Below, one piece after another: positions 30,910 to 47,393 of a stretch of 64,000 nt of DNA; positions within the stretch are counted from its first letter, which is position 1; every line of letters begins with the position of its first letter. Made by a program: the position numbers and the translations under genes. The stretch is from positions 17,778 through 81,777 of the forward strand of contig JBAXQE010000010.1 of the NCBI GenBank assembly GCA_037131895.1, given 5' to 3'. The stretch is from Chitinophagia bacterium. GTDB lineage: Bacteria > Bacteroidota > Bacteroidia > Chitinophagales > Chitinophagaceae. The notes beneath the pieces were generated by a model. That model was not told the DNA's origin. It saw only the letters and a list, made by a program, of their open reading frames with translations, and did no database searches.

Positions 30910-33360
30910 TTACCTTTTATCCTCTTTTTCTTCCTTTTCAAAGGGGGTAAAGAAGGCGGCTCTTCTAGGAGCGGGTACAGAAGCAGATGCTCCCTTCACA
31001 GCTTTCCAAATTACCTCGGTAAATAGGCGGTCGGGTATTCGATCTTCTTTAGAAAAATCGAATCGCTCACTCATTTGTTGCCAAACATTTTCTACCGAAT
31101 TTTTTTCGTTGATATTTACTTGCAAGGGTTTTTGCGCAAAGGGAGTTGAGTTGGCTGTTGAAGTAAAACATCGCCACATTGGTTCTGCTGCAGCATCGTA
31201 TTGGCTCATCGGTTCTAATCCAAGTATCAGTTCAATGGTTCTTAACATTGAAGAAGTGGTGTACATAGTATGATCAATAAAATGTCTTTTTACCAATCCA
31301 CCGGCAACATACGCAGTACTTCTGTGCGCATCCACATGGTCGGGCCCATCTTGGGCATCATCCTCTAAAATAAAAATGGCGCATTGATTCCATATTTTAC
31401 TTTTACTCAGGTATTCTACAAACATGCCAATTGCTAAATCATTATCGGCCACATGCGCAAATGGGGTTGGGCGACCTTTGCTCAGTCCTTCTGTATGATC
31501 ATTTATAATTCGTAGGGTACTTAGTCTAGGCACAGCATTTATCGCCAATAGTGAATCGAAATCTCTTTTCCATTGTCCTACACGGGTTGTATCCCGAACG
31601 CTTTGATCCCAACTGGTAAAATAAGGGCAAAAATGATCTTTTAGAACTGGAATATTGGGTTTGTAATCATCGGCAAATTCGCCATAAGTGCGATAACTTA
31701 TCCCTGCCCGTTTACAATAATCCCAGATAAATCCTTTTTTATTGTTGGCAATCGCCCGGTTCCCTTCGGCATCATAATCGCCCCCTCTTCCACCATAACT
31801 GGTTACCCAGGTTTTTTCAAGATAGTCATTCGAATAAGCACCCAAGCTCCAGTTATGCCCGTCTGCACTCACTTCTCCATCTACATAAAAATTATCCAAT
31901 AGTACAAATTCACGGGAAAGAGCGTGCTGATTCGGGGTAACTTTTTCGCCAAAAAGGCAAAGGCTGGTATCACCATTTCCTTCGGGCATATCTCCTAAAA
32001 CTTGATCGTAGGTTCGGTTTTCTTTTACAATATAAAATACATATTGAATAGGAGATGGGTTGCCCAGTTTCATGGGAATCGGATTGCCTGCTTCTCCAGA
32101 TGCCTGGGTTTCCTTGGTTTTATTATAGGGGGTATTTCGGTAAACCGCCTGAGTAAATATCTTTAACTGACTGGGTTGTGGAATAGGAATGATACTCAAT
32201 GTTCCTTTAAATAACCCGCCAATATATTGTACTTCCTTGGGTTGGGTGGTATCGCCTTTTTGAAATGAGAGTTGAATATTTGTGTTAACAGGATTAGGAC
32301 CATAAGGATTCGCACGCGAGGTAAATCCTTTTCCGTTTGCTACAAACAATTCTTTTCCCACTACCCGAACACAGGTAGGATACCATCCGGTAGGGATAAA
32401 GCCTTTAGAAATACTGCTGCCCAGCACACTAACATCATACACCGATAAACAATTGTTATCAGCATTCGCGATAAACAGGGTTTTGGCATCAGAACTCAGG
32501 GCAACACTATTGGTAGTTGAACCTCCGGGAGCATCCGGATATAGTGCCGTATTCAATGTTTCAATTACGGAATATTTTTTCAAATCGATTACCGATACAC
32601 TGTTGTCATTAGCATTTGCCACGTATAATATATTGCCATTGGGCGACAAGGTAATGTCGTTAGGATTACTGCCTACTGCTATCTGATGGGTTATACTTTT
32701 CGATTGTGTGTTGAATACAACAATGGATGCACTCCCCCAAGAACTAATGTATACTTCGTTTTTGATAGGTGAAACTACAATCGTGTAAGCTTCTGCAGGC
32801 AGAGATACTTTTTTTAAAATTTGTTGGGTAGATAAATCTATCAAATACAACGAATTGTTTTCTTTGGTTACGGCATATAAAATATTAGTACGATGGTCGA
32901 TGTTCATACCAGCAATTGATATTCTTTCGGGCCAAGACTTGCCAATTACGATGCTATCCGAAAAAACCAACTTGTTGTCTTTAACGGCATACCGAATAAT
33001 CCGATTATCATTGCCTCCAGAAACATATAAGTAGTCGTCGTTTTTGCTGAAACACAAGCCCAGCCAGGCTTTGGCAATTTCTATCGAATGTAGAACCTTT
33101 TTATTTTTTATATCAATTAACTGCAAGGTTTGGGTGCTTTGTCCATTATTCGTTACCGCCATATATTTTTTTGAGTGGGCAACTGCGAGGTTCAGTGGTA
33201 AGTCTCCTAATGGCAGGCTGCTTCCTACCGGAGTAAGGTTCCAACCATTGGGTAATCCAATCCTTTTTTCATTCAGTTCCTGAAGAGTTTGGGCATATAT
33301 CTGCACTGCTGATAGTAGCAAAATGATGAACGCGAATACTATTTTTTTCATAACTATCAT
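30910..33360 (-). CDS. Bifunctional YncE beta-propeller / alkaline-phosphatase-superfamily phosphoesterase
   Basis: YVTN repeats, GWYPT, then YIVKENRTYDQVLGD, EVSADGHNW, NDHT, EDDAQDGPDHVDAHRS. Confidence 0.92.
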   Translation of the reverse strand: MIVMKKIVFAFIILLLSAVQIYAQTLQELNEKRIGLPNGWNLTPVGSSLPLGDLPLNLAVAHSKKYMAVTNNGQSTQTLQLIDIKNKKVLHSIEIAKAWLGLCFSKNDDYLYVSGGNDNRIIRYAVKDNKLVFSDSIVIGKSWPERISIAGMNIDHRTNILYAVTKENNSLYLIDLSTQQILKKVSLPAEAYTIVVSPIKNEVYISSWGSASIVVFNTQSKSITHQIAVGSNPNDITLSPNGNILYVANANDNSVSVIDLKKYSVIETLNTALYPDAPGGSTTNSVALSSDAKTLFIANADNNCLSVYDVSVLGSSISKGFIPTGWYPTCVRVVGKELFVANGKGFTSRANPYGPNPVNTNIQLSFQKGDTTQPKEVQYIGGLFKGTLSIIPIPQPSQLKIFTQAVYRNTPYNKTKETQASGEAGNPIPMKLGNPSPIQYVFYIVKENRTYDQVLGDMPEGNGDTSLCLFGEKVTPNQHALSREFVLLDNFYVDGEVSADGHNWSLGAYSNDYLEKTWVTSYGGRGGDYDAEGNRAIANNKKGFIWDYCKRAGISYRTYGEFADDYKPNIPVLKDHFCPYFTSWDQSVRDTTRVGQWKRDFDSLLAINAVPRLSTLRIINDHTEGLSKGRPTPFAHVADNDLAIGMFVEYLSKSKIWNQCAIFILEDDAQDGPDHVDAHRSTAYVAGGLVKRHFIDHTMYTTSSMLRTIELILGLEPMSQYDAAAEPMWRCFTSTANSTPFAQKPLQVNINEKNSVENVWQQMSERFDFSKEDRIPDRLFTEVIWKAVKGASASVPAPRRAAFFTPFEKEEKEDKR

Positions 33361-33364
33361 ATAA

Positions 33365-34492
33365 TTATAAAGTAGATACTACTTCTTCTGCAAAACCGAA
33401 CGAAAGGGTCATACCTGCACCACCCAATCCATTGATTATATAAACTCCCGGCTCGGGTTGTAAAAACAAATCCGTTTCTCCGTTGGTCATTTTAGGATAC
33501 ACTCCATTCCAGGTCTGAATCAATTGCCATTGCTTCGAGTGCATAAAAGTTTGCAAATAATCTAGAATCAGTTGGTTGATGTGCGCACTGTCGAATGGTT
33601 CAAACGTTTTTGCATACTCATGCGAATCGCCCACCGTAAGCTCACCACGATTGTTTTGAGAAACCATCACATGAATGCCAGCGTTTAGGTATTCGGCCAT
33701 TTCCATTTCATAACGTTGTTTTAGTTTTGGAAGGGAAGCGGCTGCTGTAAAACTTTTATAATGAATGAGTGAAAGGCCACCACATACCGAAGTGCCAATG
33801 GTATAACCAGGTTGTTCCGAAACAAACCGAAGCATTTGTAGTTTACATTTCGTTATGGGTAGTTCATTGAAGATTTCAGGAAAAAGGGTTTCAAAATCGG
33901 CTCCATTACATATACAAACAATATCTGCTTTAAATATTTCCTTTCCTGTGCGAACAGAATGGCTGGTTACTTCATTCACTTGCTTACCCCAAATAAATTG
34001 AACGCCTAAAAATTCTTCCAAATAGGCAGCTGCAGTTGCAATGGCTTCCCTAGGATCTACAATCATTTCTGTGGAACTGTACAGTCCTCCCAATAAGCCT
34101 TCCGTTTGTAATCCAGAAAATTTTTGTTGCATTTCGCTTATATTTAATAAAGAAACTGGCCTGTTTTCTTTACCAAATTCGGCTGCTAATTCCTGTAATA
34201 CTTGCCATTCATCGGCATGATACGCGGTATGTAAACTGCCATTTTCTAGATAGGGAAGTCCGGTACTATCTGCTACTTCTTTCCAAATTTGTTTCGATCG
34301 AATTGCACGCTGATACATCTTTCCTGCGGTTTGTCCAATAGGCCAGAGCATCCCAAAATTTCGGATAGAAGCACCTACGGCTTTATCGGTTCTTTCGATA
34401 ACCGTAACTGCATATCCTTTTAAAGACAAGGCACGGGCAGTTGCCAAGCCAACAATTCCGGCTCCAATTACAATTGCTTTAGTTGACTGCAT
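33365..34492 (-). CDS. TIGR03364-family FAD-dependent oxidoreductase (phosphonate-catabolism associated)
   Basis: VIGAGIVGLATA, GASIRNFG, VDPREA, CKLQML, VGDSHEY, GLGGAGMTLSFG. Confidence 0.9.
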   Translation of the reverse strand: MQSTKAIVIGAGIVGLATARALSLKGYAVTVIERTDKAVGASIRNFGMLWPIGQTAGKMYQRAIRSKQIWKEVADSTGLPYLENGSLHTAYHADEWQVLQELAAEFGKENRPVSLLNISEMQQKFSGLQTEGLLGGLYSSTEMIVDPREAIATAAAYLEEFLGVQFIWGKQVNEVTSHSVRTGKEIFKADIVCICNGADFETLFPEIFNELPITKCKLQMLRFVSEQPGYTIGTSVCGGLSLIHYKSFTAAASLPKLKQRYEMEMAEYLNAGIHVMVSQNNRGELTVGDSHEYAKTFEPFDSAHINQLILDYLQTFMHSKQWQLIQTWNGVYPKMTNGETDLFLQPEPGVYIINGLGGAGMTLSFGFAEEVVSTL

Positions 34493-35777
34493 ACTGTTGA
34501 TTTTTAGGAATTAGGTTCAATTTTTTTTTAAAATAAATTAGGGCAGCTATAGTAGCGCATATTCCAATAACTGAAAAAATAATCACTCCATTACTATACA
34601 GGTAAGTCCAGCTATTCGTATTTTTCATAAAGGTTTTTGCAATAATAATAACAACACTGCCCAAATAGCCAAATGAATCTGCTAGGTACATCAGAAATCC
34701 GATATTACCGGGCTGACGAAAAGCTGCAATCAGTCGTTCGAATAAGAGGCAATTGAAGGGGATGTATCCCATATACAAACCCAAACCTACCAAAGTCATC
34801 CACGGGATGGGATTCAGCAAATGCATCACAAAAAGCATTGAACTGATACCGGCAATCAGAAAGCCAACGATAATTAAATAGTGCGTAAGTATAAAAGCGC
34901 GGGTATTGTTTTTGATCAACATCATGCTGCCCATTAATACCAACACCATGAGGGTAATGGGTATTTCTGTTTTTGAAAAAACGGATGGCAGAGAACCATA
35001 TCCCAGTGTTTTCCAAATATCAGCGGCAAAGTTGTCGCGAATATCTCGGAAAATGGTGAGTACGATGTACACAAAAATAAGCAGTACTAGGCCGGCAGCA
35101 TATTTCCCAAAAAAAACTTTTCTTTCCTGCTTATTCATGGGGGATCTTTCAACCCTTAATAGCCTATCTTCTTCGGAGGGGGGAGGGATTTTTTCGAGTA
35201 GCTTAACGAAACAAATCAGGGGGATAATAAACAGCGCTCCTGTGGCAAAAGGTATCCATTTTTCTGAAATTGGAAAAGTTATCCAAAGCCATTTAGCTAC
35301 TGTTTTTACAAAACCAGAAGAAAATATAAAGCTAACAGCCAGGGCAGCTCCAATAAAATCGGTAGCTTTTCTGCCTTCAATATAAGAAAATAAAATACCC
35401 CAGATAATACCTAGCGGAAAGCCATTCAAAAAAAGGAATACAATATTCCAGGGTGCTGGAGTAATGCCAAATAGTAAGAGGGCTATCCAGGAAATTGTAA
35501 CCAATAAAATAATTAAATTGCCCCTGCCGAATTTTCCCAACTCAGCGATAAAGCGGATACCATAGAATTTGCTGATCATGTATCCAAGGGCTTGTGCAAT
35601 AACCAAAGCATCTTTATAAGGTATTCCAAATACATGGCCTTCCTGTTCAAAAGTACCTACTGTAAATGGTTTTCTGAAGGCATACACAGAGGCATAGGTA
35701 AGAAAAGATAATAGGGCGGCATACAATGCAACTCGAGTGGTTGGTTTAGGTAAGTAAGCATTGAGCGTTTCCTTCAT
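34479..35777 (-). CDS. DUF5690-family MFS-like transporter
   Basis: YASVYAFRKPF, GYMISKFYGI, NGFPLG..WG, RDIRDNF, LGLYMGYIPFN..FERL, GFLMYLADSFGYLG; about 12 TM. Confidence 0.85.
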   Translation of the reverse strand: MKETLNAYLPKPTTRVALYAALLSFLTYASVYAFRKPFTVGTFEQEGHVFGIPYKDALVIAQALGYMISKFYGIRFIAELGKFGRGNLIILLVTISWIALLLFGITPAPWNIVFLFLNGFPLGIIWGILFSYIEGRKATDFIGAALAVSFIFSSGFVKTVAKWLWITFPISEKWIPFATGALFIIPLICFVKLLEKIPPPSEEDRLLRVERSPMNKQERKVFFGKYAAGLVLLIFVYIVLTIFRDIRDNFAADIWKTLGYGSLPSVFSKTEIPITLMVLVLMGSMMLIKNNTRAFILTHYLIIVGFLIAGISSMLFVMHLLNPIPWMTLVGLGLYMGYIPFNCLLFERLIAAFRQPGNIGFLMYLADSFGYLGSVVIIIAKTFMKNTNSWTYLYSNGVIIFSVIGICATIAALIYFKKKLNLIPKNQQYAVN

Positions 35778-36352
35778 TAATCTTGGTTTTCCAAGTGTTG
35801 AATGATGCGATTTTCGAAGGGAAGAAGTGCAGGAACCGGAATATCATTTACTTTGGCTTGCTCGTCCCATTTTCTTAATGCTATGTATATCTCCCAATTG
35901 GGATCTGATTCAAATTCTTTGGCTTCCATTTCCGACATAACGCCTCCTTGTAGAATAAGTGTTTGTTTACTCGCATCTGAAAGTTGCTGAAAGTAGTCAG
36001 GAAATCTATAGGTAAGGTATCTTTTGGCAGCCACATGTGAAGCAACCATCTTAACCAGTCTTTCTGAAAATCCCAAGTCTTTTAAATAAGCTGCCCCAAT
36101 TTTTTCATGCGCGTGTACACCATATCCCTCCATCGATTTTGTAGGGAGTATGTGTTCACATAAATGACCTATATCATGTAAAAAAGCAGCCAAAATTACT
36201 TCTTCATCGTATCCTTGATCAATGGCCAATTGGGCAGATTGGCACATGTGTTCAATTTGAGAAACATTTTCACCAATATAATCTTCTTTGCCAAATTGTT
36301 CAAATAATGAAATGATCGTTCTTGCGTGCTCTTTAGCTAAATCTGTATTCAT
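35777..36352 (-). CDS. phnZ: PhnZ-type HD-domain phosphonate dioxygenase
   Basis: VSQIEHMCQSA, AAFLHDIGHL, HEKIGA, SHVAAKRYL, LSDASKQTLILQGG.M, LRKWDEQAK. Confidence 0.88.
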   Translation of the reverse strand: MNTDLAKEHARTIISLFEQFGKEDYIGENVSQIEHMCQSAQLAIDQGYDEEVILAAFLHDIGHLCEHILPTKSMEGYGVHAHEKIGAAYLKDLGFSERLVKMVASHVAAKRYLTYRFPDYFQQLSDASKQTLILQGGVMSEMEAKEFESDPNWEIYIALRKWDEQAKVNDIPVPALLPFENRIIQHLENQD

Positions 36353-37450
36353 TTATTTGTTTTTTATTATAGATTCGATTGGATCGGCAACTGGATGATT
36401 GGCTGTAAAATTCAGGCCCAGTAATTTTGCGAAAGTAGCAGCCAGTTGTTTTTGATAAAGCTGGATAGCATCTTTTCTTTCTCCGGCAGGTGCAGTATCT
36501 GGCCCCATAATGGCAACCCAAATTTCGCCCGCTTCTGGAATATTTGCACCATGGTTTCTCCAGTTTTCTTTTATCAAATCTCCTCTTCCATGATCGCAAG
36601 TTACAATTAACGTTGTTTTTCCTTTATAGCCAGGTTCTGATTGTACCCAATTCCATAAATCGGCTATCATCTGATCTTGTGCGCCAGCACTCAGTAAATA
36701 TTGATTGTATTGACCTCCATGCGCAAAATCATCGGTTTCGTCAAATGCTATATAAAGTACGCTGGGTCTCTTGGTTTTTAAATATTCTTTTGCAGCAAGA
36801 TACGTAATAACGTCTGGACGAACCCCTATTGGGCGCGGACTTAATCGCTGAAAATCGTTCAGTAATTGAAAATTGTTTACCGAAGAACTAAGTGTGTCGT
36901 GGTCGGAATTTACATATAGTCCACTTCTCTCTTTGTTTAAAATATACGGAAAAACATCCCAGGTAGTAAATGCAGCAACTTTATTATTAAATGCTGGTTG
37001 TTGATGGATAAATTCCAGCACATTGGTATTTTTATTCAGTATTTTATTGTTGGAGTTAACCAATGTATCAGGGTATCCGGTAAAAATTTCATTGTAACCC
37101 GGATAGGAAAACTTGTAAGGATTCGCATTATTAACTTTATTTCCAAAGTTTCTGTTTCCTAGTAACTGACCATTATTGGCCATGGTTGACCATAAGAATG
37201 GAAAAATCTTTTTTCTTCTGATGGTTGGGTCCTCATTCCAATATTTTGCAAATGCCGATAAACTATCTTGTGTAAATCTTTTGTTGGATAAAAGAGCCTT
37301 ATCCGCCCCAGTGAACACTTCCTGCCAACGCATTCCATCTAAAGTTACGATAATCAAGTTTTCAGTTTGTTGCTGGGCAGTTGCATGAATGCTAAAAAAG
37401 CTTGTATGTAACCCGAAAAATAGTAATAAAACTTTTACAGATTTTTTCAT
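36353..37450 (-). CDS. Secreted alkaline-phosphatase-superfamily protein
   Basis: Signal peptide; IIVTLDGMRWQE, FSYPGYNE (putative Ser nucleophile), DETDDFAH, VTCDHGRG, WRNHG. Confidence 0.88.
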   Translation of the reverse strand: MKKSVKVLLLFFGLHTSFFSIHATAQQQTENLIIVTLDGMRWQEVFTGADKALLSNKRFTQDSLSAFAKYWNEDPTIRRKKIFPFLWSTMANNGQLLGNRNFGNKVNNANPYKFSYPGYNEIFTGYPDTLVNSNNKILNKNTNVLEFIHQQPAFNNKVAAFTTWDVFPYILNKERSGLYVNSDHDTLSSSVNNFQLLNDFQRLSPRPIGVRPDVITYLAAKEYLKTKRPSVLYIAFDETDDFAHGGQYNQYLLSAGAQDQMIADLWNWVQSEPGYKGKTTLIVTCDHGRGDLIKENWRNHGANIPEAGEIWVAIMGPDTAPAGERKDAIQLYQKQLAATFAKLLGLNFTANHPVADPIESIIKNK

Positions 37451-37464
37451 GTAATTTCTTATAA

Positions 37465-37500
37465 GAAAGAAACGAGGTAATTAATTACCTCGTTTCTTTC
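37465..37500. terminator. Perfect 36-bp palindrome between susD and the downstream enzyme genes (stabiliser or partial terminator)
   Basis: gaaagaaacgaggtaattaattacctcgtttctttc is its own reverse complement. Confidence 0.75.
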
Positions 37501-37535
37501 CTGATTTTATTTAATGTAATTTATATGCTATTCCA

Positions 37536-39110
37536 TTATTGAAGAATCCACATAATCTGAAATATACCATCAGTTCCTGTGTATTGACTTTGTACAGCTG
37601 CTTTTACATTAGCAGAATTGGTAGAATATTCTGAAGATGGATATTGAAAGCGAAGAGGAATCGCATTTCCGTTTCCTACCCCAGCACCTGTTGAGAAAGT
37701 TGGAATCCCCGTTCTTCTCCATTGGTAATAGCCTTCATAACCTGAATTACGTGCTAGAGATAAATACCTTTGGGTAAGAATTTTTGTCAAATCATTCGCA
37801 TCGCCCAACAACTTTACGGAGTTTTGGTTAAAATAATCCGCATAATTAAAAGTGATATTATAATTAACATAGTCGCCTGGGGCTGTTCCTTTTAAGAAAG
37901 AAACTGTGTTTGCACCATCATTTACACCATAAAAAGCAAACATGGCTTTTATTCCATTTTGATACCATGTATTGGCAGTTCCCGTAACCCAACCACGATT
38001 TATTGCTTCGGCTATATTCAAACACATTTCAGGGTATCCAACAATGAATGTGTTTTCTCCAGTAAAACCATCGTAATATCTTTTACGACCAATTGGGGAA
38101 ATGGTAAAAGCATTGATTTGCCCTCCTAAAGTACTCATGTCAGCTCCATTTGCTCCACCAACAAAAGACTTATAAGAAGTATCAGGAAATCCTAAACCAC
38201 GTGCCGGATCGGCTACTTTCATAGCTCTTAAATCATTTAAACTAGAAAGGGTATTTAACCATGTAGCTGCTACACATAAACGAGTTGCATCATTTCCATA
38301 ATTACCTTTATTGTTTGGGTAGTAATTATAAGTTGAGTTATAAACATATTCCCAATTGTCCGATAATGAAGTCATTATTGGATATTTTGAAGGGTTGTTC
38401 ACAACATCTGCAAACTTTTGTTTGATATTTAAATCAGCATCAGCAGATTTTTTACTTAAGTTAATCAAAATACGTAATTTAAAAGTATTCACTACTTTTT
38501 GCCATTGCTTCAAAGATGTTAAAGCATCTTTTGGATCTGAAATTCTTTCTTTATAATAAAAGTCTCCTAACAGTGCATTATTTGAACTGCTGATAAGTGA
38601 AGCCAACTGAGTATTTGCATCTTCTAATAACTGTAAACACTGAACAAAAATTTGTTTTTGGTTATCGTATTTAGGAGTAGGATTGCTAGTACCCTGTAAA
38701 GCTTCAGACATTGGCAAATCTCCCACTTTCATCGTCATATTGTAGAAAATATATGCTTTAAACAACTTGGCTAAAGCTGAATAAGGATTAGAAGCTCCTG
38801 ATGCCTTTACTGCTTCTTTTTCCATTGCATTTATGTCGTTCAATACGTTGTATTGAAGTGATGCACTTCCCGACCAATATTGGTTGTCTCCATAGTAGGT
38901 ATAGGTAGATAAAGTGTATTGCGATCTTTTGTCTTCATCACCCCCAGGGAATACTACTAAATTGTTCTCAATGTTACGTAACAATAAATAGGCCGGAACG
39001 GTAGTCGGCTGGTTATTGTTTACAGCGTAATTGTCAAATGTTTTTGAGCAACTACTTGCAATCATTACTATTACTAATAATAAAGCTGTAATTATATTTG
39101 TCTTTTTCAT
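37536..39110 (-). CDS. susD: SusD/RagB-family nutrient-binding lipoprotein
   Basis: Lipobox ASS-C; GDLPMSEALQG..PKYDNQ; W.K..N..KLR; RRTGIP, IPLRFQYP. Confidence 0.93.
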   Translation of the reverse strand: MKKTNIITALLLVIVMIASSCSKTFDNYAVNNNQPTTVPAYLLLRNIENNLVVFPGGDEDKRSQYTLSTYTYYGDNQYWSGSASLQYNVLNDINAMEKEAVKASGASNPYSALAKLFKAYIFYNMTMKVGDLPMSEALQGTSNPTPKYDNQKQIFVQCLQLLEDANTQLASLISSSNNALLGDFYYKERISDPKDALTSLKQWQKVVNTFKLRILINLSKKSADADLNIKQKFADVVNNPSKYPIMTSLSDNWEYVYNSTYNYYPNNKGNYGNDATRLCVAATWLNTLSSLNDLRAMKVADPARGLGFPDTSYKSFVGGANGADMSTLGGQINAFTISPIGRKRYYDGFTGENTFIVGYPEMCLNIAEAINRGWVTGTANTWYQNGIKAMFAFYGVNDGANTVSFLKGTAPGDYVNYNITFNYADYFNQNSVKLLGDANDLTKILTQRYLSLARNSGYEGYYQWRRTGIPTFSTGAGVGNGNAIPLRFQYPSSEYSTNSANVKAAVQSQYTGTDGIFQIMWILQ

Positions 39111-39147
39111 AAATTGTTTTTTTGTGTTTTCAGTAAGAATGATTCAA

Positions 39148-42100
39148 TTAGAAAACAAAATTTACATTAAACCCATAACTGCGTGTTGTAGGCGTTTGAA
39201 GATCGTATTCTCTGCTATTTCCGCTGTTGTAATTCCGACCTGAATATTGGTCAACATCCATATCTTTAAAACGACTAGGGAAGAAATATAATAGGTTACG
39301 ACCAACAAGGGAAACATCAATTTTGGATATAAATGTCTTCTTGCCTAAAAACTTAGTAGGTACTGAATATGTAATTACTACCTCTCTCAGTTTTGCATAT
39401 GTTTTTTTAACAGAAGTATGTTCAAAATCATTAAAGAAACTACTTACATAGTCTTGAATATAATTAACTACACCTGTATTATTTACATATTTTAAGGCAC
39501 CAGCATTGGTAATTACACCAGTAATTGGATCATAGGTAATTGCAGGGCTGCCCGCAGCCAATTGAACTCCTTCTCCAACATAGGTACCCTTAAAGCCCGG
39601 TACAGCAGAGAAACTGTTTGTAGCAGCATTATATACTACATTTTTTGCTTCAATTGCTCTTGCTGCTCCTACAGCGCCTTCAACAGTAGATATATTCGAT
39701 CCACCCTCTATACCTTTACGCATAACTCTATCCTGAACCATTCCACCAACTTTGCCATCAAATTGGAAAGAGAAGCTAAATTGTTTATAATAAAACTTGT
39801 TATAAATCGACCAAGACCAATCTACATCTGCATTACCAACGTACTGGGCTTTGGGTAAATAGATTGGATAACCAGCACTATTGTTTATTACTTGGCCATC
39901 AGTTGTTTTTGCAGTAACACCAGCATATAATTTATCTACTCGATCACCCTGTTGGAATTGGTAATTGGCGAAGTTTGCAGGCAAATCTTTATAAGTCTCT
40001 TTATAAGTAGACCAGTTTAGAATCACATCCCAGTTTAAACCTTGGGCATTTTTCAAAGGAGATCCGTTTACTGTTATTTCAGCACCCTTCACCTGGGTTT
40101 TAATAGCATTAGTTGTAAAACCACTTAAACCGGTTGTTTGAGATAAGGGATAATTTCTAATACCAGGACCAATTATATTGTTAAATAATGTTACGGAAGC
40201 ACCTAAACGATTTTTTATAAACCGAACGTCAAATCCATATTCTAAACTGCTGGTTTCAGATGATTTTATATTAGGATCTAGAACGGTTGAAGGGGCACTT
40301 GCTCCAGATTGTCCATTATATACAGTTCCAATAGAATAAGCTGGATTTGCTAAAGAATAAGAAGGACCTCCATAGGCAGAAACATAAGGTGATCCATAAC
40401 CTATAGGATAACCAGCTGGTCCGATGTAAGGAGAAGTACTAGGTGCTTTTGCTTGTGCATAAGAAGCTCTAACCTTCAAAAAGCTGATTGATGAAGGTAA
40501 TTTTAAATAATCTGATAATACACTAGCTCCTGAAAATGATGGATAGAAATAGGTATTATTATTTAACAACAAAGTAGAATTTTTGTCTGCACGTCCGGTG
40601 GCAGTTAAAGAAAAATATTTATTAAAATCTACATTAATTGAATAATAAGCACTCAATACCAACATTTTTGAATTGAAATTGTAGGCTCTAACAGGATTTA
40701 ATGAATTAGAAAATGAATATAAGCCCGGTACGTTCAGATAATCGGTAGTTACAAAGCTTGATCTATATTCAAAATTTCTTGCATTAACACCTCCTAAAAC
40801 ATCATAGGTAATCCCACCTTTCAACTTGTTATTATATTTTACAAATGCCTCAACGTTATTATCGAATAAAGAACGTTGATCTTCTCTGTAATCACCTCTA
40901 TTCAACTCCCTTCCATAAGGATGCGCTGAGTATGGCATTTTTTCAGTTCTTAAAACGTCATTTGTTGACAAATTGGTTCTTAAAGTGGCTTCTAAATGCT
41001 TATTGGGAGTATAAGTTAATGAAACGTTACCAGTGATATCATTTTTGGTATGTCCTCTTAACCATTCATAACTTACAAAATAAGGATTGTGGTACCGCTG
41101 ATATTCGGCGAAAATTGATTGAACACCTTCTTTACCTGGCTGCCAATAATTTTTCATATCATCAATATTCCAATCCGCACCTGTCCAAACAGTAACAGTA
41201 TAGATAACGCTGTTTGGTCCATAAACTACATCAGGAATGTTAGGAGAGAATTGGCGATTGTAATTTAAGGTACCTTCAATTTTCAACTTGCTGCTTAAAT
41301 TATAGCTAGCATTAATATTGAAATTAATGGTATTTAATTTGGTATTCGGAATGATACCTTTTTGGTTCGTGTGGGTTAACGACATACGGATACTTGAACG
41401 ATCCGTTGCAGATGAAAAACTAAGATTATTTGTGGTTAATAAACCTGGACGAATAAAGCGCTTTAAATTGTCAACGCCTCTAGCGACATAAGGAGTTGCT
41501 TTTCTAACTCCAGTTACAGGGTCAATTGGACTATCATACTGAGGAATTAATTGCCCATTTAAGGCAGGTCCCCAAACATCATAATCTCCATCATTTAATC
41601 CACCTCCCTTTCCATCTCCAAAAATATAAGTAGAGTAATCACCCCCTCCATATAAAGCTTGTGTTTTTGGAAGAGCAATAAATCCTTTGTTTACTTGCGT
41701 GCTAGAATTAAACTCAATGGTATAGCCCTTGTCATTTTTTTTACCTCTTTTGGTAGTAATTAGAATGGCTCCATTCTGAGCACGGCTTCCATAAATAGCA
41801 GTTGCTGCAAGACCTTTCAATATGGTATAGGATTCAATATCATCTGGACTAAGATTCCAAGTATCCGATGTAATGGGTATACCATCTACTACATATAAAC
41901 TAATGTTATATCCACGAAATGACACATTTGGAGAAGCTAGCATCTCTTGGTTGATAGCAACATCAAGACCAGCAACTTTACCTACTAAGCTGTTTACTGG
42001 ATTTACTTCTCTTGCTTTTACTAAATCAGATCCTTTCACCTCTTGAACTGAATACCCCAATTTCTTGGTTTCTTTTTTTACTCCTAATGAAGTTACTACA

Positions 42101-42426
42101 ACTTCATTTAAATTTTCAGCTACTCTTTCTAATTTAACTGAAATAAATGAACCATTGGCAACAACTTTCTGACTGTTGTAACCAACAATAGAAACTGTGA
42201 TAGTGCTGCTACTTTTAACACCATCCAATTGAAATTCACCTGCGTTATTAGTTTTTGCATTCAAATTTTGGCCAGCAACAACTACACTAGCCATTTCAAT
42301 TGGTTTGCCGGTTTCGGCATCTACTACTTTTCCCTTTACCTGAACATTCTGTGAAAAGGCGGTTAGGCCAATACACATAAATAGGAGGGTAGAGAATACC
42401 CATGTTAGTTTTGATTGCTTGCCCAT
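39148..42426 (-). CDS. susC: SusC/RagA-family TonB-dependent transporter
   Basis: N-terminal extension, EVVVTSLG, YVVDGIP, DDIESYTILKG..ATAIYGSRAQNGAILITTK; C-terminal PTTRSYGFNVNFVF. Confidence 0.97.
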   Translation of the reverse strand: MGKQSKLTWVFSTLLFMCIGLTAFSQNVQVKGKVVDAETGKPIEMASVVVAGQNLNAKTNNAGEFQLDGVKSSSTITVSIVGYNSQKVVANGSFISVKLERVAENLNEVVVTSLGVKKETKKLGYSVQEVKGSDLVKAREVNPVNSLVGKVAGLDVAINQEMLASPNVSFRGYNISLYVVDGIPITSDTWNLSPDDIESYTILKGLAATAIYGSRAQNGAILITTKRGKKNDKGYTIEFNSSTQVNKGFIALPKTQALYGGGDYSTYIFGDGKGGGLNDGDYDVWGPALNGQLIPQYDSPIDPVTGVRKATPYVARGVDNLKRFIRPGLLTTNNLSFSSATDRSSIRMSLTHTNQKGIIPNTKLNTINFNINASYNLSSKLKIEGTLNYNRQFSPNIPDVVYGPNSVIYTVTVWTGADWNIDDMKNYWQPGKEGVQSIFAEYQRYHNPYFVSYEWLRGHTKNDITGNVSLTYTPNKHLEATLRTNLSTNDVLRTEKMPYSAHPYGRELNRGDYREDQRSLFDNNVEAFVKYNNKLKGGITYDVLGGVNARNFEYRSSFVTTDYLNVPGLYSFSNSLNPVRAYNFNSKMLVLSAYYSINVDFNKYFSLTATGRADKNSTLLLNNNTYFYPSFSGASVLSDYLKLPSSISFLKVRASYAQAKAPSTSPYIGPAGYPIGYGSPYVSAYGGPSYSLANPAYSIGTVYNGQSGASAPSTVLDPNIKSSETSSLEYGFDVRFIKNRLGASVTLFNNIIGPGIRNYPLSQTTGLSGFTTNAIKTQVKGAEITVNGSPLKNAQGLNWDVILNWSTYKETYKDLPANFANYQFQQGDRVDKLYAGVTAKTTDGQVINNSAGYPIYLPKAQYVGNADVDWSWSIYNKFYYKQFSFSFQFDGKVGGMVQDRVMRKGIEGGSNISTVEGAVGAARAIEAKNVVYNAATNSFSAVPGFKGTYVGEGVQLAAGSPAITYDPITGVITNAGALKYVNNTGVVNYIQDYVSSFFNDFEHTSVKKTYAKLREVVITYSVPTKFLGKKTFISKIDVSLVGRNLLYFFPSRFKDMDVDQYSGRNYNSGNSREYDLQTPTTRSYGFNVNFVF

Positions 42427-42440
42427 AATTTTTTAATTAA

Positions 42441-42530
42441 TTAGGTGACAAAACTATTGACAACCCTTTAACATATTGTTTAACAAATATGATGATAGCG
42501 TTATGCAATTGTTACCGCAATGTAAACATG
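42441..42530 (-). promoter_or_regulatory. 11-12-bp periodic direct repeats upstream of susC (Pho-box-like)
   Basis: Minus strand: tttac-gtaac-ataac at 11-bp period, then TGTTAAA/TGTTAAA/TGTCAAT/TGTCACC at 12/11/12-bp period. Confidence 0.4.
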
Positions 42531-42594
42531 CGAAATGGAGGGTATTATTACAAATTAAATTTTGAAAAAACTAACTTCTGTAAGCTTAGTTTAA

Positions 42595-43638
42595 TTATAT
42601 GCCAGTTGCAAGCTGAGAGAAGTTTTCCTGATAATTTGCAGATTTACTTAAGGCATAACCCTTTTCTACTACCAATCGAATCAACTGTTCAGTTGAATGA
42701 GTAAGGGTCAGGGATTGCGGATGGGGTGCAGATAGCCAATTGGATACATGTTCGTGGAAAGTATGATCCATTTTAAGTAATACAGGTATATTTCTTTTAA
42801 TTAATGCAGCTGCATTGCAAAGCTGCTCATACTGGCCTCTAATTGGAAGCGCCAATAATTTTTTTCCCAGGTAAAGTGTTTCAGCAGGTGTTTCAAATCC
42901 CGCTCCAGTGATAACACCCGTACTTTCTATCATGCTTGTAGTAAATGCTGCATTATTCACTGGAAAGTAAGAACAGTTTCCTTCGGTATAGGAAGATTTT
43001 ACAAGGGGTGAAAATATTTCGAAACGAATGCCATCCATTTTTTTAAGTTCTTTCTGTATTTCCTGCAAGCCGTAATGCGGCAAGTAAACAGTTATATGGC
43101 CTTTGTCAACTGGGTTGGCTTGTAAAATCTGTTCTTTAATAATAGGATTATAGATATTATTATCATACGAATCGAAGTGCAATCCAACATATTCCTGTGC
43201 CCAACCATAATACCGCAATATCATTTCGCCAAACCTGTCTTTTTTTTCTGGACGTGGGGTAAGCGTACTCTGAAAGCTTGCCTGATGTCCAAAACCAATA
43301 CTCGCTTTACCACTTAATTTACAAGCTAATGAAGTAATGCTTTCAAAGTCATTAATTACTAAGTCATAGTTGTTTACTGGTAAATTCCTTGCTTCTTTTA
43401 TTGCTTTACCTATTTGTAGTTCTTTGGCAATTTTCCAATAATCTAATTTCCCCATGGGTGCATAAAACAAGCTCAAACCCTTGCTACGAAAACGGATTGG
43501 TAAGTCAACTGGAAGATGGCAGTTACTGCCACTTAAGAAAACATCTACTTCGCCATATTTTTTCAAGTAAGGAAGTATTTCTTTCGCCCTTGCGATGTGT
43601 CCATTTCCAGTAGCCTGAACAGCGTATAAAATTTTCAT
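42595..43638 (-). CDS. Glycosyltransferase, MJ1255/VC2487 (TIGR00661-like) family
   Basis: MKILYAVQATGNGHIARA, VINDFE, GHQA, ITGAGFETPAETLYLGK, GQYEQLCNA. Confidence 0.9.
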   Translation of the reverse strand: MKILYAVQATGNGHIARAKEILPYLKKYGEVDVFLSGSNCHLPVDLPIRFRSKGLSLFYAPMGKLDYWKIAKELQIGKAIKEARNLPVNNYDLVINDFESITSLACKLSGKASIGFGHQASFQSTLTPRPEKKDRFGEMILRYYGWAQEYVGLHFDSYDNNIYNPIIKEQILQANPVDKGHITVYLPHYGLQEIQKELKKMDGIRFEIFSPLVKSSYTEGNCSYFPVNNAAFTTSMIESTGVITGAGFETPAETLYLGKKLLALPIRGQYEQLCNAAALIKRNIPVLLKMDHTFHEHVSNWLSAPHPQSLTLTHSTEQLIRLVVEKGYALSKSANYQENFSQLATGI

Positions 43639-43643
43639 AAGAA

Positions 43644-44528
43644 CTATTTTACAGAAGTAGCATTCAATATTAATTGTTCAGCTAACAGATCTTCGATGGA
43701 TAATGCTTTTCGTATAGGTACCACAGGAGTTTTTTGAGTGCTGGCTTTTTGATTTTGTTCATCGTATTGATAAATAGTCCATGCACAATTGTCGTATTCC
43801 AAAGCCGTTAGGTTTTCTATCCAGTCGCCACTATTTAGATACACTACAGATCCTTTGTCTGTTTTAACAATACGATGTTGAGGCTGATGGATGTGTCCAC
43901 AAATCACATACTCATATCCATTCTCTATGGCTAATTCCGCAGCGGTTTGTTCAAAATTTCCGATCCAAGAAACCGCTTTTTTTACTCCATTTTTCACCTT
44001 TTTACTCAAACTCATCTTTTCCCTTCCTACTAATTGGAGTAAATAATTGATGGAGCGATTGAGTAAAATCAATAAATCGTAGCCATATCCACCGAGTTTC
44101 GCTATAATTTTTGCTGAGCCCTTAGTCGTTCTGTCAAAAACATCTCCATGGAAAATCCAAGTTTTTTTACCATCTAGTTCTAATACCCATTTATCGGTTA
44201 ATTGCAATTGGCCAATCGTTAAGTCGCTATACCTGCGCATAATTTCATCATGATTGCCGGTAATGTAAACTACTTTTGTACCCAAACTAAGCAGACTGAA
44301 AATTTCTTTTATCACCTGCATGTGAGATTGTGGGAAATAGCGCTTATTAAATTGCCAGATATCTATTATATCACCATTTAATACTAAAGTTTCTGGTTGA
44401 ATGCTCCGGAGATATTGAATAAGTTCGGTGGCGTGGCAGCCAAATGTGCCTAGATGTACGTCGCTGATAACAACCAATTCAACGCTTCTTCTACTCATAA
44501 TAAGGGTTTGCCAAAATTGAAACTGCAT
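43644..44528 (-). CDS. Metallophosphoesterase of the UDP-2,3-diacylglucosamine hydrolase / PlcP-like family
   Basis: ISDVHLGT, NGDIIDIW, GNHDE, HGDVFD, ICGHIHQP, YLNSGDWIENLTALEY. Confidence 0.9.
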   Translation of the reverse strand: MQFQFWQTLIMSRRSVELVVISDVHLGTFGCHATELIQYLRSIQPETLVLNGDIIDIWQFNKRYFPQSHMQVIKEIFSLLSLGTKVVYITGNHDEIMRRYSDLTIGQLQLTDKWVLELDGKKTWIFHGDVFDRTTKGSAKIIAKLGGYGYDLLILLNRSINYLLQLVGREKMSLSKKVKNGVKKAVSWIGNFEQTAAELAIENGYEYVICGHIHQPQHRIVKTDKGSVVYLNSGDWIENLTALEYDNCAWTIYQYDEQNQKASTQKTPVVPIRKALSIEDLLAEQLILNATSVK

Positions 44529-44646
44529 TGTTATCTTAGCTTTACGAGAATATTAACCTATCGTAAATTTTACTTTAACAAATTGTAAACAAATAGGTTA
44601 TTTATACGATTTAAGGCTATTCTAAGTTAATTATCAATTAAATTAT

Positions 44647-45999
44647 ATGATAACAGCTGAAGAATTTGGAGGAGATTTTTTGTGGGGCGCTGGCATCTCT
44701 GCACCTCAAAATGAAGGAGCTGCTTTGGAGGATGGGAGAGGACTATCCGTGTGGGATGTATTTTCTCGCAGGGTAGCCGTTATTCGGGGAGGTACCAAGC
44801 CAACGGTTACCAGTGATTTTTATCATCGATATAAAGAGGATCTGTTACTAGCGAAGGCGCTGGGCTTCTCTGCCTTTCGGTTTTCAATTTCATGGAGTAG
44901 GATTTTACCTGCCGGAACTGGTAAAATAAACCAAGCTGGACTAAAATTTTACCATGCTGTTATAGATGAGTGCTTATTGTTAGGACTTACGCCCGTGGTA
45001 ACATTGTATCATTGGGATTTGCCACAGGCTTTGCAAAAGGAAGGTGGGTGGGCGAATCATCATATAATAAAATGGTTTACACGGTATGTAAAAATATGTG
45101 TGCAGGAATTTACACCTAAAGTGCAACATTGGATCATCATTAATGAGCCATTGGCCTTTACTTCTTTGGGTTATATGACTGGTTTACATGCTCCTGGTAA
45201 AATTAGTGTGCAATCATTCTATTTGGCTGCCCACCATACAGCCCTTTGCACTGCAGAAGCCTCACGCCTTATTCGCCAGATTAATTCCAATGCAATTATA
45301 GGCAGCAGTTTCTCATTTAGTGAAACACATGCACACCGAAATCAGCCTGCCGATTTGCGTGCAGCCGAAAAGTCTGATTTAATACTTAACAGGTTTTTTT
45401 TAGAGCCAGCCTTGGGTATGGGATTTCCTATGATGGATGGATTTCCGGTAATAGAGAAATTTCATTTATTTAACCGTAGTTGGCGTTTTAAGGAAGCTAT
45501 GAAATGTGATTTGGATTTTGTTGGATTTCAAAACTATTTTCCGGTAACAGTAAGGCATAATCCACTAGTGCCCTATGTTGGTACTTCAGAAGTGAGTGCG
45601 AAAAGTCGTAAGGTTCCGCATACTGCGTTGGGGTGGGAAATTAATGCCGCCAGTTGTTACCGGATGTTGAGGAGAGTGGCAGATTATCCAGGCGTGAAAA
45701 AAATTATCGTAACCGAAGGCGGCTGTGCCGAAAAGGAAACGCTGCATCCCGGTAAAGTGGTCGACCCCCTGCGGATAAAGTATTTTCAGCAATACCTTCA
45801 AGCCGTTTTACAAGCTAAAAAAGAAGGGGTGCCCATTGATGGGTATTTTGTATGGACGCTCACCGACAATTTTGAATGGGCTTTCGGTTTCACTGCCCGT
45901 TTTGGTTTGGTTCGTGTGGATTTTGAAACTCAGTTACGAACCATCAAAGATTCTGGGTATTGGTTTAGAAATTTTTTAAGTGGCACCGGGGATCGTTAA
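44647..45999 (+). CDS. Glycoside hydrolase family 1 beta-glucosidase
   Basis: QNEGA, DFYHRY, RFSISWSR, TLYHWDLP, INEP (acid/base), VTEGG (nucleophile), WTLTDNFEWAFG..RFGL. Confidence 0.95.
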   Translation: MITAEEFGGDFLWGAGISAPQNEGAALEDGRGLSVWDVFSRRVAVIRGGTKPTVTSDFYHRYKEDLLLAKALGFSAFRFSISWSRILPAGTGKINQAGLKFYHAVIDECLLLGLTPVVTLYHWDLPQALQKEGGWANHHIIKWFTRYVKICVQEFTPKVQHWIIINEPLAFTSLGYMTGLHAPGKISVQSFYLAAHHTALCTAEASRLIRQINSNAIIGSSFSFSETHAHRNQPADLRAAEKSDLILNRFFLEPALGMGFPMMDGFPVIEKFHLFNRSWRFKEAMKCDLDFVGFQNYFPVTVRHNPLVPYVGTSEVSAKSRKVPHTALGWEINAASCYRMLRRVADYPGVKKIIVTEGGCAEKETLHPGKVVDPLRIKYFQQYLQAVLQAKKEGVPIDGYFVWTLTDNFEWAFGFTARFGLVRVDFETQLRTIKDSGYWFRNFLSGTGDR

Positions 46000-46787
46000 A
46001 ATTGTTCTGCAACTGTAACCAATTGTTTTTGAGTTTTTTTAACTGCCAACTTCTCTTTTTTATGTATGCTCGCTAAAGCAATTGCCATTGCTTGCCTACT
46101 GTTTAGTGGGGACTTATCCATATGCTCTACCTCTTCGAGCCGGTTAATGATAGTGCAGCATTCATGCCAGTCGCCGATATTTTTCTCCAGTTTACTAATT
46201 GCATGGATTTTTTTCTGATTAGGAAGCCGGTCTTTATCAAGCCAATTGGTTGCATATATCCATTTCTTGCAAAGTTTCCTTATCTCATGCCAGTCTTTCT
46301 GTTTTGCTTTTTTGAGTCCTTTTTTAAGGGAGGCAGATAATTGCATAAAATACTGTTCCGCTAAAATATTATGGGTTTTGTTGGCCAAACTCTCAGCCTT
46401 TTTCATTTGTTTGGTATAGGCATTGAAATGCTTTTGCAGAAAAGCTTGTGTTTGGTTTGCTTGTTGGAGTATATCTGCCTCTGTACAACCGAGGGTTGCA
46501 TCCAATTGTACATTTATTTTTTGTAGCCATTGATTGATCAACTGCATTTCTCTCCATTCTCCGGCTTGTTGAAATAGTTCTCTGGTAACATTGGGTAATT
46601 TTCCTATAGACCCTTTTCCATAAATCGATTGAAGAAAGGAGAATATAGCTTTGATTCTTTTCATCTGTACCCGCAAATCATGCAAATTAGATACAGAGCC
46701 CACCTGAGCCGTGTCCATCCAAGAGTTAAAAAGGGATAGGGTGGTTTGGCGGAAATAAGTATGAAAATTTCCTTTCATACCAAACAA
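45996..46787 (-). CDS. CHAD-domain (polyphosphate-binding) protein
   Basis: LHDLRVQMKRIK, WHEIRKLCKKWIY, IGDWHE; very Lys/Arg-rich. Confidence 0.82.
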   Translation of the reverse strand: MFGMKGNFHTYFRQTTLSLFNSWMDTAQVGSVSNLHDLRVQMKRIKAIFSFLQSIYGKGSIGKLPNVTRELFQQAGEWREMQLINQWLQKINVQLDATLGCTEADILQQANQTQAFLQKHFNAYTKQMKKAESLANKTHNILAEQYFMQLSASLKKGLKKAKQKDWHEIRKLCKKWIYATNWLDKDRLPNQKKIHAISKLEKNIGDWHECCTIINRLEEVEHMDKSPLNSRQAMAIALASIHKKEKLAVKKTQKQLVTVAEQF

Positions 46788-46885: not shown

Positions 46886-46920
46886 CAAAAAAGGCTGACT
46901 ATAAAAGTCAGCCTTTTTTG
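46886..46920 (-). terminator. Intrinsic terminator
   Basis: caaaaaaggctgact-ataaa-agtcagccttttttg downstream of the 46935 gene. Confidence 0.85.
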
Positions 46921-46934
46921 TTGATACTGTTGGT

Positions 46935-47393
46935 TTAAAAAAACAGGTTACTCAGTACATTCCCTGCTCCGTTTCCGCCCGGTTTCAAATTCATAAATTT
47001 GCTAAAATTAGCTGCACCCATAATACCTTTCATTTTTCCAAAAAGGCCTTGTTGCATAGGGGCAAATTTACTCAGGTAGGCGGAAGGGTCGCTGCCTGCT
47101 AATCCCATAATGCCTTGCTTTTGCTTTAAAAAACCGCCAACTGCCTCTGTTAAAGCGCCTTTTTGAGAAGCGGGTAGGGAGAGCTGACTGGTTAGTTTAT
47201 CTACTACACTATTGGTAGTACCCGTAATATCACCCAATTTAGGGGGAGCAATAAAACTACCCAGTGCTGAGGTAGCCGCTTTGGTTACGTCGGCAGTTTT
47301 TGGGAGACTAATTTGGGCATTGATTTGATTCAACAACAGGCTGGTAATGATCAGCAGTAAAACTTTTTTCATAATTAGTAATGTTTTTGGCAA
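46935..47393 (-). CDS. Secreted hypothetical protein
   Basis: Signal peptide (MKKVLLL..INA-Q); followed by a terminator. Confidence 0.75.
   Translation of the reverse strand: MPKTLLIMKKVLLLIITSLLLNQINAQISLPKTADVTKAATSALGSFIAPPKLGDITGTTNSVVDKLTSQLSLPASQKGALTEAVGGFLKQKQGIMGLAGSDPSAYLSKFAPMQQGLFGKMKGIMGAANFSKFMNLKPGGNGAGNVLSNLFF

Follow-up and report, generated by a model that had tools for sequence, protein, structure and literature searches.

Two adjacent operons on the minus strand of a Chitinophagaceae genome (Chitinophagia bacterium, GCA_037131895.1) combine a predicted phospholipid-remodelling module with a predicted import and cleavage pathway for aminophosphonates, and their promoters carry the same array of 11-bp direct repeats. 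Together they form a unit of 13.6 kb (30910-44589) in the window, by which we mean the whole 64,000-nucleotide stretch analysed here, itself part of contig C10 in a genome of 2.88 Mb and 99.5% completeness. We think it likely that the two operons belong to a single regulon, and the most plausible regulator is a PhoB-type response regulator acting under phosphate starvation. In the first operon, a PlcP-like phosphoesterase and a glycosyltransferase would spare phosphorus (P) by replacing the cell's own phospholipids. The second, led by SusC and SusD, would be a phosphate utilisation locus for aminophosphonates. Genes were identified from a map of open reading frames (ORFs) and from profile searches against Pfam and NCBIfam over positions 26564-48019 (Table 1), and these recovered every gene family that a first-pass annotation had named in this region.

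The shared promoter array ties the two operons together. Its 11-bp unit, C-TTAAC-ATTT, occurs four times before the PlcP-like gene and seven times before SusC. The four PlcP units (TTTACAATTTG, TTAAAGTAAAA, TTTACGATAGG and TTAATATTCTC) have the cores TTTAC, TTAAA, TTTAC and TTAAT, follow each other in exact 11-bp steps and end 17 nt from the ATG. The SusC cores read TTTAC, GTAAC, ATAAC, ATCAT, TTAAA, TTAAA and TCAAT, and the array abuts a Bacteroidota -7 box, TAGTTTTG (42456-42449, minus strand); the succession of array and TAnnTTTG box is conserved in the orthologous SusC promoters of the sampled genera. A strict search of the genome for TTWAH at 11-bp spacing gave a single exact four-unit array, the one before PlcP, and none in three shuffled genomes. 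It missed the SusC array, where units start with G or A.

To score such arrays more flexibly, a model of four tied 11-nt units was scanned over 5.76 million genome positions; it replaced a 24-nt motif model from orthologous SusC promoters that was overfitted and gave an uninformative genome scan. When a combined model was trained on upstream regions of SusC and PlcP from relatives alone, 12 of the 5.76 million positions reached at least 17 bits, and the SusC and PlcP promoters ranked second (25.3 bits) and third (21.5 bits) among them. Circularity was avoided with a PlcP-only model, trained from random seeds on the upstream regions of 20 further genera in which PlcP does not lie beside a phosphonate cluster. 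It returned five genome sites at 15 bits or above: a TonB-dependent receptor on C45 (32.0 bits), the SusC promoter (29.9), C5:48218 (19.3), the PlcP promoter (17.7) and, on C9, a paralogue of the alkaline-phosphatase-superfamily (AP-like) protein of the second operon (16.6).

The relation between the two promoters holds in both directions across the family. When motifs were sought in 18 SusC upstream regions and, in a separate run, in 20 independent PlcP upstream regions, the same unit emerged, TT(A/C)C-TTAAC-AT. All 18 SusC promoters scored above the 99th percentile of random 200-mers with the PlcP-trained model (median 19 versus -20 bits), and so did all 20 PlcP promoters with the SusC-trained model (median 25.5 versus -7.9 bits); one of 16 operon-internal control regions passed. 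The array is present at the PlcP promoters of 26 other genera and at the orthologous SusC promoters of 18 genera. No significant array was found upstream of the neighbouring CHAD and BNR/sortilin-repeat genes, upstream of a second SusCD pair on C2, or in the gap between SusD and the AP-like gene.

We consider the array a likely Pho operator that would be bound by PhoB. Its architecture (direct repeats, 11-bp period, abutting -7 box) fits a regulator of the OmpR/PhoB type. The TAACAT unit resembles only loosely what we take to be the enterobacterial half-site, TGTCAT. Because the genome lacks pstSCAB and phoU (no PstS, PstC, PstA or PhoU homologue was found in it), pstS promoters were examined in relatives. 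One relative (G074) has a three-unit array of 17.2 bits, a level reached at 7 positions in the whole genome under study, 20 nt before pstS-pstC-pstA. In another (G057), an array of 29.5 bits lies about 50 nt before a porin-pstS-pstC operon. Since the array precedes the pstS operons of two of the three relatives that have one, its identification as a PhoB operator is probable. No published Bacteroidota Pho box was found in the literature searched.

The PstS-less state of this genome has parallels among its relatives. Its match to TIGR02136 is a weak PBP-like protein alone (53.5 bits, cut-off 206.6), and most sampled Chitinophagaceae have a similarly weak PBP-like match in the place of PstS (about 36-72 bits against the same cut-off). 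The sole phosphate uptake gene found in the genome encodes a Pit-type transporter. It lies in an apparent operon at C3:2079-5710 with genes for PhoB-like, PhoR-like and DUF47 (PhoU-like) proteins, and this PhoB-like protein is our candidate regulator. The first-pass annotation had noted that no phoBR lies within the window, which agrees with the location of this pair on another contig. The window does encode a LuxR/HisKA_3 pair (49924-51361); 11-bp direct repeats would fit OmpR/PhoB-type regulators better.

Co-regulation of both operons under phosphate limitation is, as a computational prediction, well supported. The cis-elements, together with published data on Flavobacterium, in which low phosphate induces phosphonatase-containing SusCD clusters (PMC8115612; bioRxiv 10.1101/719427), point to induction by P limitation. 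A more specific proposal is that the array is the Chitinophagaceae PhoB operator, that the Pho regulon is compact and lacks PstS, that the SusCD-aminophosphonate operon is a principal route for P, and that DUF5690 is the permease. We advance this tentatively, at slightly less than even chances. If it is right, the Pho regulon of these bacteria would consist of TonB-dependent and SusCD importers, exported phosphoesterases and lipid remodelling.

The first operon fits the PlcP scheme of lipid remodelling by analogy. Its phosphoesterase scores 53 bits against LpxH models (cut-off 134) and matches LpxH in the PDB at 33 bits; a paralogue at C7:79553-80362 reaches 73 bits in the same comparison and is the likelier housekeeping LpxH. 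The window protein is a predicted phospholipase C that would act on the cell's own phospholipids and remove their phosphate head group. The glycosyltransferase gene starts 5 nt after it, and among the six loci of relatives in which PlcP is adjacent, five also show a glycosyltransferase match beside it. This enzyme, of the MJ1255/PF13528 family and not Agt, is predicted to glycosylate the resulting diacylglycerol, rebuilding it as a P-free glycolipid. PlcP is Pho-regulated in F. johnsoniae, with a log2 fold change of 8.6 at low phosphate (PMC8115612), and in other bacteria too (PMC4796936).

In the second operon, SusD and SusC would bind and import phosphonate-bearing molecules, for instance head-group fragments of lipids or glycans. 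The AP-like enzyme and an exported propeller/phospholipase C-like phosphoesterase would then free the aminophosphonate in the periplasm or at the cell surface. The AlphaFold model of the AP-like protein (pLDDT 80.5) has an alkaline-phosphatase-superfamily fold whose best Foldseek matches are NPP, ENPP6 and PafA (TM about 0.5). Its invariant residues D38, D240/D241, H244, D286/H287 and H352 could ligate metals. The protein had no sequence match in NCBIfam or the PDB, and its closest homologues are in Ferruginibacter, Sediminibacterium and Ginsengibacter. A role as phosphonoacetate hydrolase PhnA was rejected, as there is no TIGR02335 match and the fold is nearest to NPP/ENPP6. We predict it to be a periplasmic phosph(on)oesterase releasing the aminophosphonate head group. 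The propeller/PF04185 protein, encoded by the last gene of the operon, has four paralogues elsewhere in the genome and is a variable exported accessory of the cluster.

DUF5690 would carry the released aminophosphonate across the inner membrane. This membrane protein matched no PDB sequence, even at an E-value of 10, and no functional assignment was found for it in the literature searched; its context makes it a candidate aminophosphonate permease. It was also considered as a counterpart of the aminophosphonate transporter AepP, which is GlpT-like (PMC8316502). A second DUF5690 gene (45% identity) lies at C11:71092-76915 with genes for a TonB-dependent receptor, a Zn-dependent alcohol dehydrogenase and a Fib_succ_major lipoprotein; no significant array was found upstream of that locus. 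The family may carry more than aminophosphonates.

Two enzymes would then act on the imported compounds. The PhnZ-like protein narrowly misses the TIGR03276 cut-off (Table 1) and matches the PhnZ crystal structure (PDB 4MLM) with 153 bits, against 113 bits for TmpB. Its alignment to 4MLM keeps Y24, E27, H34, H58/D59 and H62, that is, the HD di-iron ligands and the Tyr24/Glu27 pair. This pair reportedly recognises the 2-amino group of the substrate, residue roles being those of the PhnZ structural study. Since no PhnY* hydroxylase was found in the cluster, PhnZ here probably cleaves pre-formed, naturally occurring (R)-1-hydroxy-2-aminoethylphosphonate ((R)-HAEP) oxidatively into glycine and phosphate, and phnZ homologues in pbfD clusters have been read as such an (R)-HAEP route (PMC10590968 supplement). 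The FAD oxidoreductase belongs to the TIGR03364/PbfD type, which oxidises 2-aminoethylphosphonate (AEP) and N-methyl-AEP to phosphonoacetaldehyde (Zangelmi et al. 2023, PMC10590968), and the same amine oxidase activity is predicted here.

Phosphonoacetaldehyde would be hydrolysed in trans by a PhnX-like enzyme of the HAD type encoded at C9:99115-99864 (TIGR03351, 224.9 bits, cut-off 218.9). On C9 this gene is followed by that of the 378-aa AP-like paralogue (43% identity), with an array of 16.6-20.1 bits between the two, and the pair (C9:99115-101130) is probably a displaced part of the phosphonate cluster. Most relatives appear to encode a PhnX-like enzyme in the cluster itself. About 14 of 20 loci have a slot of roughly 700 bp between PhnZ and DUF5690, and the two slots that were read hold a HAD hydrolase of 226-229 aa of the PhnX-like kind.

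Genes after SusD lie on the same strand with gaps of at most 85 nt. From the AP-like gene through the propeller/phosphoesterase gene, neighbours overlap or are no more than 4 nt apart, and no glycoside hydrolase is present in the SusCD operon. The longest gap, from SusD to the AP-like gene, contains a hairpin whose stem is 16 bp long. As only 13 nt separate it from the next ATG, the five genes beyond it must be read through from the SusC promoter, and the hairpin is probably a partial terminator or an RNA-stabilising element; G+C-rich inverted repeats were seen by eye at this position in several relatives. In the 168-nt gap between the glycosyltransferase gene and SusC, a weak hairpin and T-run come first and the -7 box lies further on. 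This hairpin, which the terminator scan did not report, is a possible terminator between the two operons.

Table 1. Features of the two operons and their immediate neighbours, in window coordinates
Feature	Position	Strand	Evidence or description
Pho-box-like array before the PlcP-like gene	44546-44589	-	four 11-bp units
PlcP-type (LpxH2-like) metallophosphoesterase, 294 aa	43644-44528	-	PF00149, PF12850
Glycosyltransferase, 347 aa, GT-B	42595-43638	-	PF13528 (Glyco_trans_1_3), MJ1255/VC2487 family
Weak AT-rich hairpin and T-run, 3' of the glycosyltransferase stop	42565-42591	-	read from sequence
SusC promoter, seven 11-bp units running into the -7 box	42449-42526	-	sequence and motif models
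SusC/RagA-type TonB-dependent outer-membrane transporter, 1092 aa	39148-42426	-	TIGR04056, 414 bits (cut-off 368)
SusD-like surface lipoprotein, 524 aa	37536-39110	-	PF12771, 183 bits
Hairpin, 16-bp stem, in the SusD/AP-like gap	37465-37500	-	terminator scan and sequence
Exported alkaline-phosphatase-superfamily (AP-like) protein, 365 aa, signal peptide	36353-37450	-	PF01663, 33 bits
PhnZ-type HD di-iron oxygenase, 191 aa	35777-36352	-	TIGR03276, 208.1 bits (cut-off 214.6)
DUF5690 polytopic membrane protein, 432 aa	34479-35777	-	PF18943, 541 bits
PbfD-type FAD oxidoreductase, 375 aa	33365-34492	-	TIGR03364, 425.7 bits (cut-off 285.1)
Exported protein, 816 aa, N-terminal 7-bladed beta-propeller and C-terminal PF04185 phosphoesterase (phospholipase C/AcpA family)	30910-33360	-	
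GH1 beta-glucosidase	44647-45999	+	PF00232, 435 bits
CHAD-domain protein, 263 aa	45996-46787	-	PF05235, 44 bits

The distribution of the cluster was surveyed in 151 Chitinophagaceae genomes, one per genus. PhnZ occurs in 41 of the 151 genera, a PlcP-like homologue in 102 and a CHAD homologue in 30. Loci of 20 kb around PhnZ from 20 genera were compared with the window proteins by tblastn, and the relatives' gene calls come from tblastn and simple ORF finding. PhnZ, DUF5690 and the FAD oxidase are together in all 20 loci, SusC and SusD are found in 18, where the SusC orthologues head the cluster, and an AP-like orthologue is present in 17. The propeller/phosphoesterase homologue lies inside the cluster in four (L006, L012, L013 and L020), PlcP with or without the glycosyltransferase is found in six, and GH1 and CHAD are found in none. 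The first-pass annotation had proposed checking whether the clustering is conserved; the SusCD-phosphonate core recurs, with PlcP often enough nearby to exceed chance, and the CHAD and GH1 genes never do.

Of the 41 genomes with PhnZ, eight have PlcP within 10 kb of it and a ninth at 20 kb, when chance placement in genomes of 3-8 Mb would be expected to give well under 1%. The PlcP-glycosyltransferase pair stands in tandem with SusC here but diverges from it in the relatives, which implies at least one change of arrangement. In a genome of the same genus the PlcP and phosphonate modules are 886 kb apart. The juxtaposition of the two modules is therefore recurrent but evolutionarily labile.

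Several observations weigh against the reading of these operons as a PhoB-controlled route to aminophosphonate P. The PhoB-like protein falls below both curated PhoB cut-offs (228 versus 296 and 216 versus 270), and its PhoR-like partner also scores below the curated PhoR cut-off. The candidate phoB promoter has no significant array, and autoregulation is not seen. In the third relative with a pstS-type operon (G081), where the operon lies behind an Rrf2-type gene, there is no array. The top array site in the genome is beside a VIT-like ORF and a di-haem peroxidase gene and could fit another stimulus. On the enzymatic side, this copy of the cluster lacks the PhnX-like hydrolase gene as well as PhnY*, the usual partner of PhnZ; the four PhyH-family proteins encoded elsewhere in the genome reach no more than 60 bits with the PhnY model, whose cut-off is 500. 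The substrates proposed for SusCD, the AP-like protein, the propeller/phospholipase C-like protein and DUF5690 are predictions from context.

The regulatory points among these, together with the presence of three OmpR-family regulators in the genome, would suit an array that serves a non-PhoB OmpR-family regulator answering another signal (metal limitation or envelope stress, for example); the operons would then be co-regulated, only not by phosphate. We find this unlikely, given that the array precedes the pstS operons of G057 and G074 and, in 20 of 20 independently fetched genera, PlcP, a known Pho-regulated gene. The neighbours of the top site can also be accommodated: in F. johnsoniae, low phosphate induces orphan TonB-dependent transporters and a MauG-like di-haem peroxidase (PMC8115612). 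A different objection concerns the SusCD-phosphonate operon by itself, which might be a substrate-induced, phosphate-insensitive locus for nitrogen or carbon that merely sits beside the PlcP operon. Phosphate-insensitive AEP catabolism with its own transporters is known in Pseudomonas and marine Alphaproteobacteria (PMC8316502), and the low share of genomes with PlcP beside the cluster (8/41) is in keeping with it. However, profile searches found no LysR-type or other substrate regulator in the cluster, its SusC promoter carries the same array as the PlcP and pstS promoters, here and in 18 of 18 relatives, and the related Flavobacterium clusters respond to low phosphate (PMC8115612; bioRxiv 10.1101/719427), which leaves this explanation only a slim chance.

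The first-pass annotation had gone further and read the whole 16-kb stretch, CHAD included, as one contiguous P island coupling capture, sparing and storage. CHAD domains bind polyphosphate granules, which lends the idea some appeal, and GH1, divergent from PlcP and convergent on CHAD, shares with PlcP the 118-nt intergenic region that holds the array (19.4 bits when read on the plus strand). Capture and sparing are indeed linked by the array common to the SusC and PlcP promoters, but storage does not join them. CHAD lies behind a strong terminator (46887-46919) and has its own promoter region, where the best four-unit array scores -0.5 bits, which amounts to no array. In none of the 29 other genera with a CHAD homologue is it within 100 kb of PlcP or PhnZ, and ppk is on another contig (C6). 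The GH1 gene, which that annotation did not list, breaks the claimed contiguity by standing between PlcP and CHAD, and it is absent from all 20 related loci. We thus regard an island that extends to polyphosphate storage as very improbable: CHAD is a neighbour and not part of the unit, and GH1 is not part of the conserved unit, although it may be co-regulated through the shared array region. Nor does the term island apply in the sense of a mobile element. The G+C content is 0.35-0.40 across the stretch, the same as in the flanks, and no integrase was found among the ORFs at 26564-48019 scanned against Pfam or NCBIfam; the stretch is a gene cluster, not a mobile island.

Both modules belong to published kinds of loci, namely PusCD loci, pbfD(-phnX)(-phnZ) clusters and plcP-glycosyltransferase operons with Pho boxes. 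The PusCD or PUS loci of Flavobacterium (Lidbury et al., ISME J 2021, PMC8115612; bioRxiv 10.1101/719427) likewise combine SusC/SusD with exported phosphoesterases, a phosphonate-cleaving enzyme and an inner-membrane transporter, and have no glycoside hydrolases co-located with SusC/SusD. They are induced by phosphate depletion in organisms that mostly lack PstSCAB, with a glycosyltransferase and PlcP in the same stimulon (PMC8115612). Here, by contrast, the host belongs to the Chitinophagaceae, the enzymes are PhnZ, PbfD, DUF5690 and an unclassified AP-superfamily member, and induction is a prediction from the promoter sequences. PlcP is an orphan gene in F. johnsoniae (PMC8115612), whereas the PlcP-glycosyltransferase pair described here lies directly upstream of the SusCD operon in tandem. 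The Flavobacterium PUS publications report no Pho box; a candidate is derived here.

The published PlcP-glycosyltransferase operons (Zavaleta-Pastor 2010; Sebastian et al., ISME J 2016, PMC4796936) share with the first operon an LpxH-like metallophosphoesterase followed by a glycosyltransferase, and a direct-repeat operator of Pho-box architecture in front. They use an Agt (GT4) type enzyme, whereas the glycosyltransferase here is of the MJ1255/Glyco_trans_1_3 family, with a predicted activity and lipid product, and the operator here is built of TTAACAT units where the proteobacterial Pho box has CTGTCAT. The PhnY*/PhnZ oxidative 2-AEP pathway (McSorley 2012; van Staalduinen 2014, PDB 4MLM) has the same HD di-iron ligands and Tyr24/Glu27, and it includes PhnY*, which was found neither in this cluster nor convincingly in the genome. 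In pbfD-phnX(-phnZ) clusters (Zangelmi et al., iScience 2023, PMC10590968), as here, a TIGR03364/PbfD oxidase replaces the PhnW transaminase, and a phnZ homologue occurs without PhnY* in the same cluster. Those clusters include the PhnX-like hydrolase, which is encoded on C9 here, and rely on an ABC or AepP-type transporter, in place of which we find a SusCD operon with exported phosphoesterases and DUF5690.

The new elements are therefore the tandem arrangement of the PlcP-glycosyltransferase and PUS operons, the loss of the PhnX-like gene from the cluster, and a cross-validated operator motif that links both operons with each other and with pstS. Many soil and freshwater Bacteroidota lack PstSCAB, and how they compete for P is only partly understood. 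With this locus the PusCD idea, a SusCD importer connected to C-P bond-cleaving enzymes, gains an example from the Chitinophagaceae. The operator sequence would tie phosphonate capture and phospholipid sparing to one switch and permits regulon prediction in Chitinophagaceae, and DUF5690 and the unclassified AP-superfamily enzyme are flagged as targets for functional work. As the concept, the enzyme families and the lipid-remodelling module have already been published, the advance is incremental.

Other array sites and related loci were noted in the same genome. The strongest array (32-34 bits, C45:96-4883) precedes a TonB-dependent receptor gene that runs off its 4.9-kb contig, and upstream of this gene are those of a di-haem cytochrome c peroxidase (CCP_MauG) lipoprotein and the VIT-like ORF. 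On C5, a SusC/SusD pair has the 19.3-bit array (C5:48054-48934) in the large intergenic region upstream of it, but the array points the other way, and the next gene in the direction of the array, RadA-like by eye, is 670 nt off. The second SusC/SusD pair on C2 (C2:103479-119257; 41% and 37% identity) is followed by genes for an amidohydrolase (613 aa) and a further protein of 278 aa. Adjacent genes encode a PhnA-like protein (168 bits, cut-off 407), a PhyH-family dioxygenase and one more AP-superfamily protein, which makes this region a possible second organophosphorus locus without the array.

Around the cluster itself, a 1019-aa BNR/sortilin-repeat protein is encoded directly downstream (27379-30438). 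It has seven paralogues in the genome at 28-36% identity, one of them in the window at about 52312-55335. Upstream of CHAD are two small ORFs without a Pfam match, 46935-47393 (152 aa, with a signal peptide) and 47504-48019 (171 aa). Some relatives carry extra genes in the cluster, judged here by their N-terminal sequences: an AraC-like ORF adjoins the FAD oxidase gene in the same-genus genome (L006, 1611-2495), another locus has a glycerophosphodiester phosphodiesterase-like ORF (L009, 7720-8550), and two have a TonB-dependent-receptor-like ORF of about 680 aa between the esterases and PhnZ (L012, 10974-13022; L019, 10940-12973).

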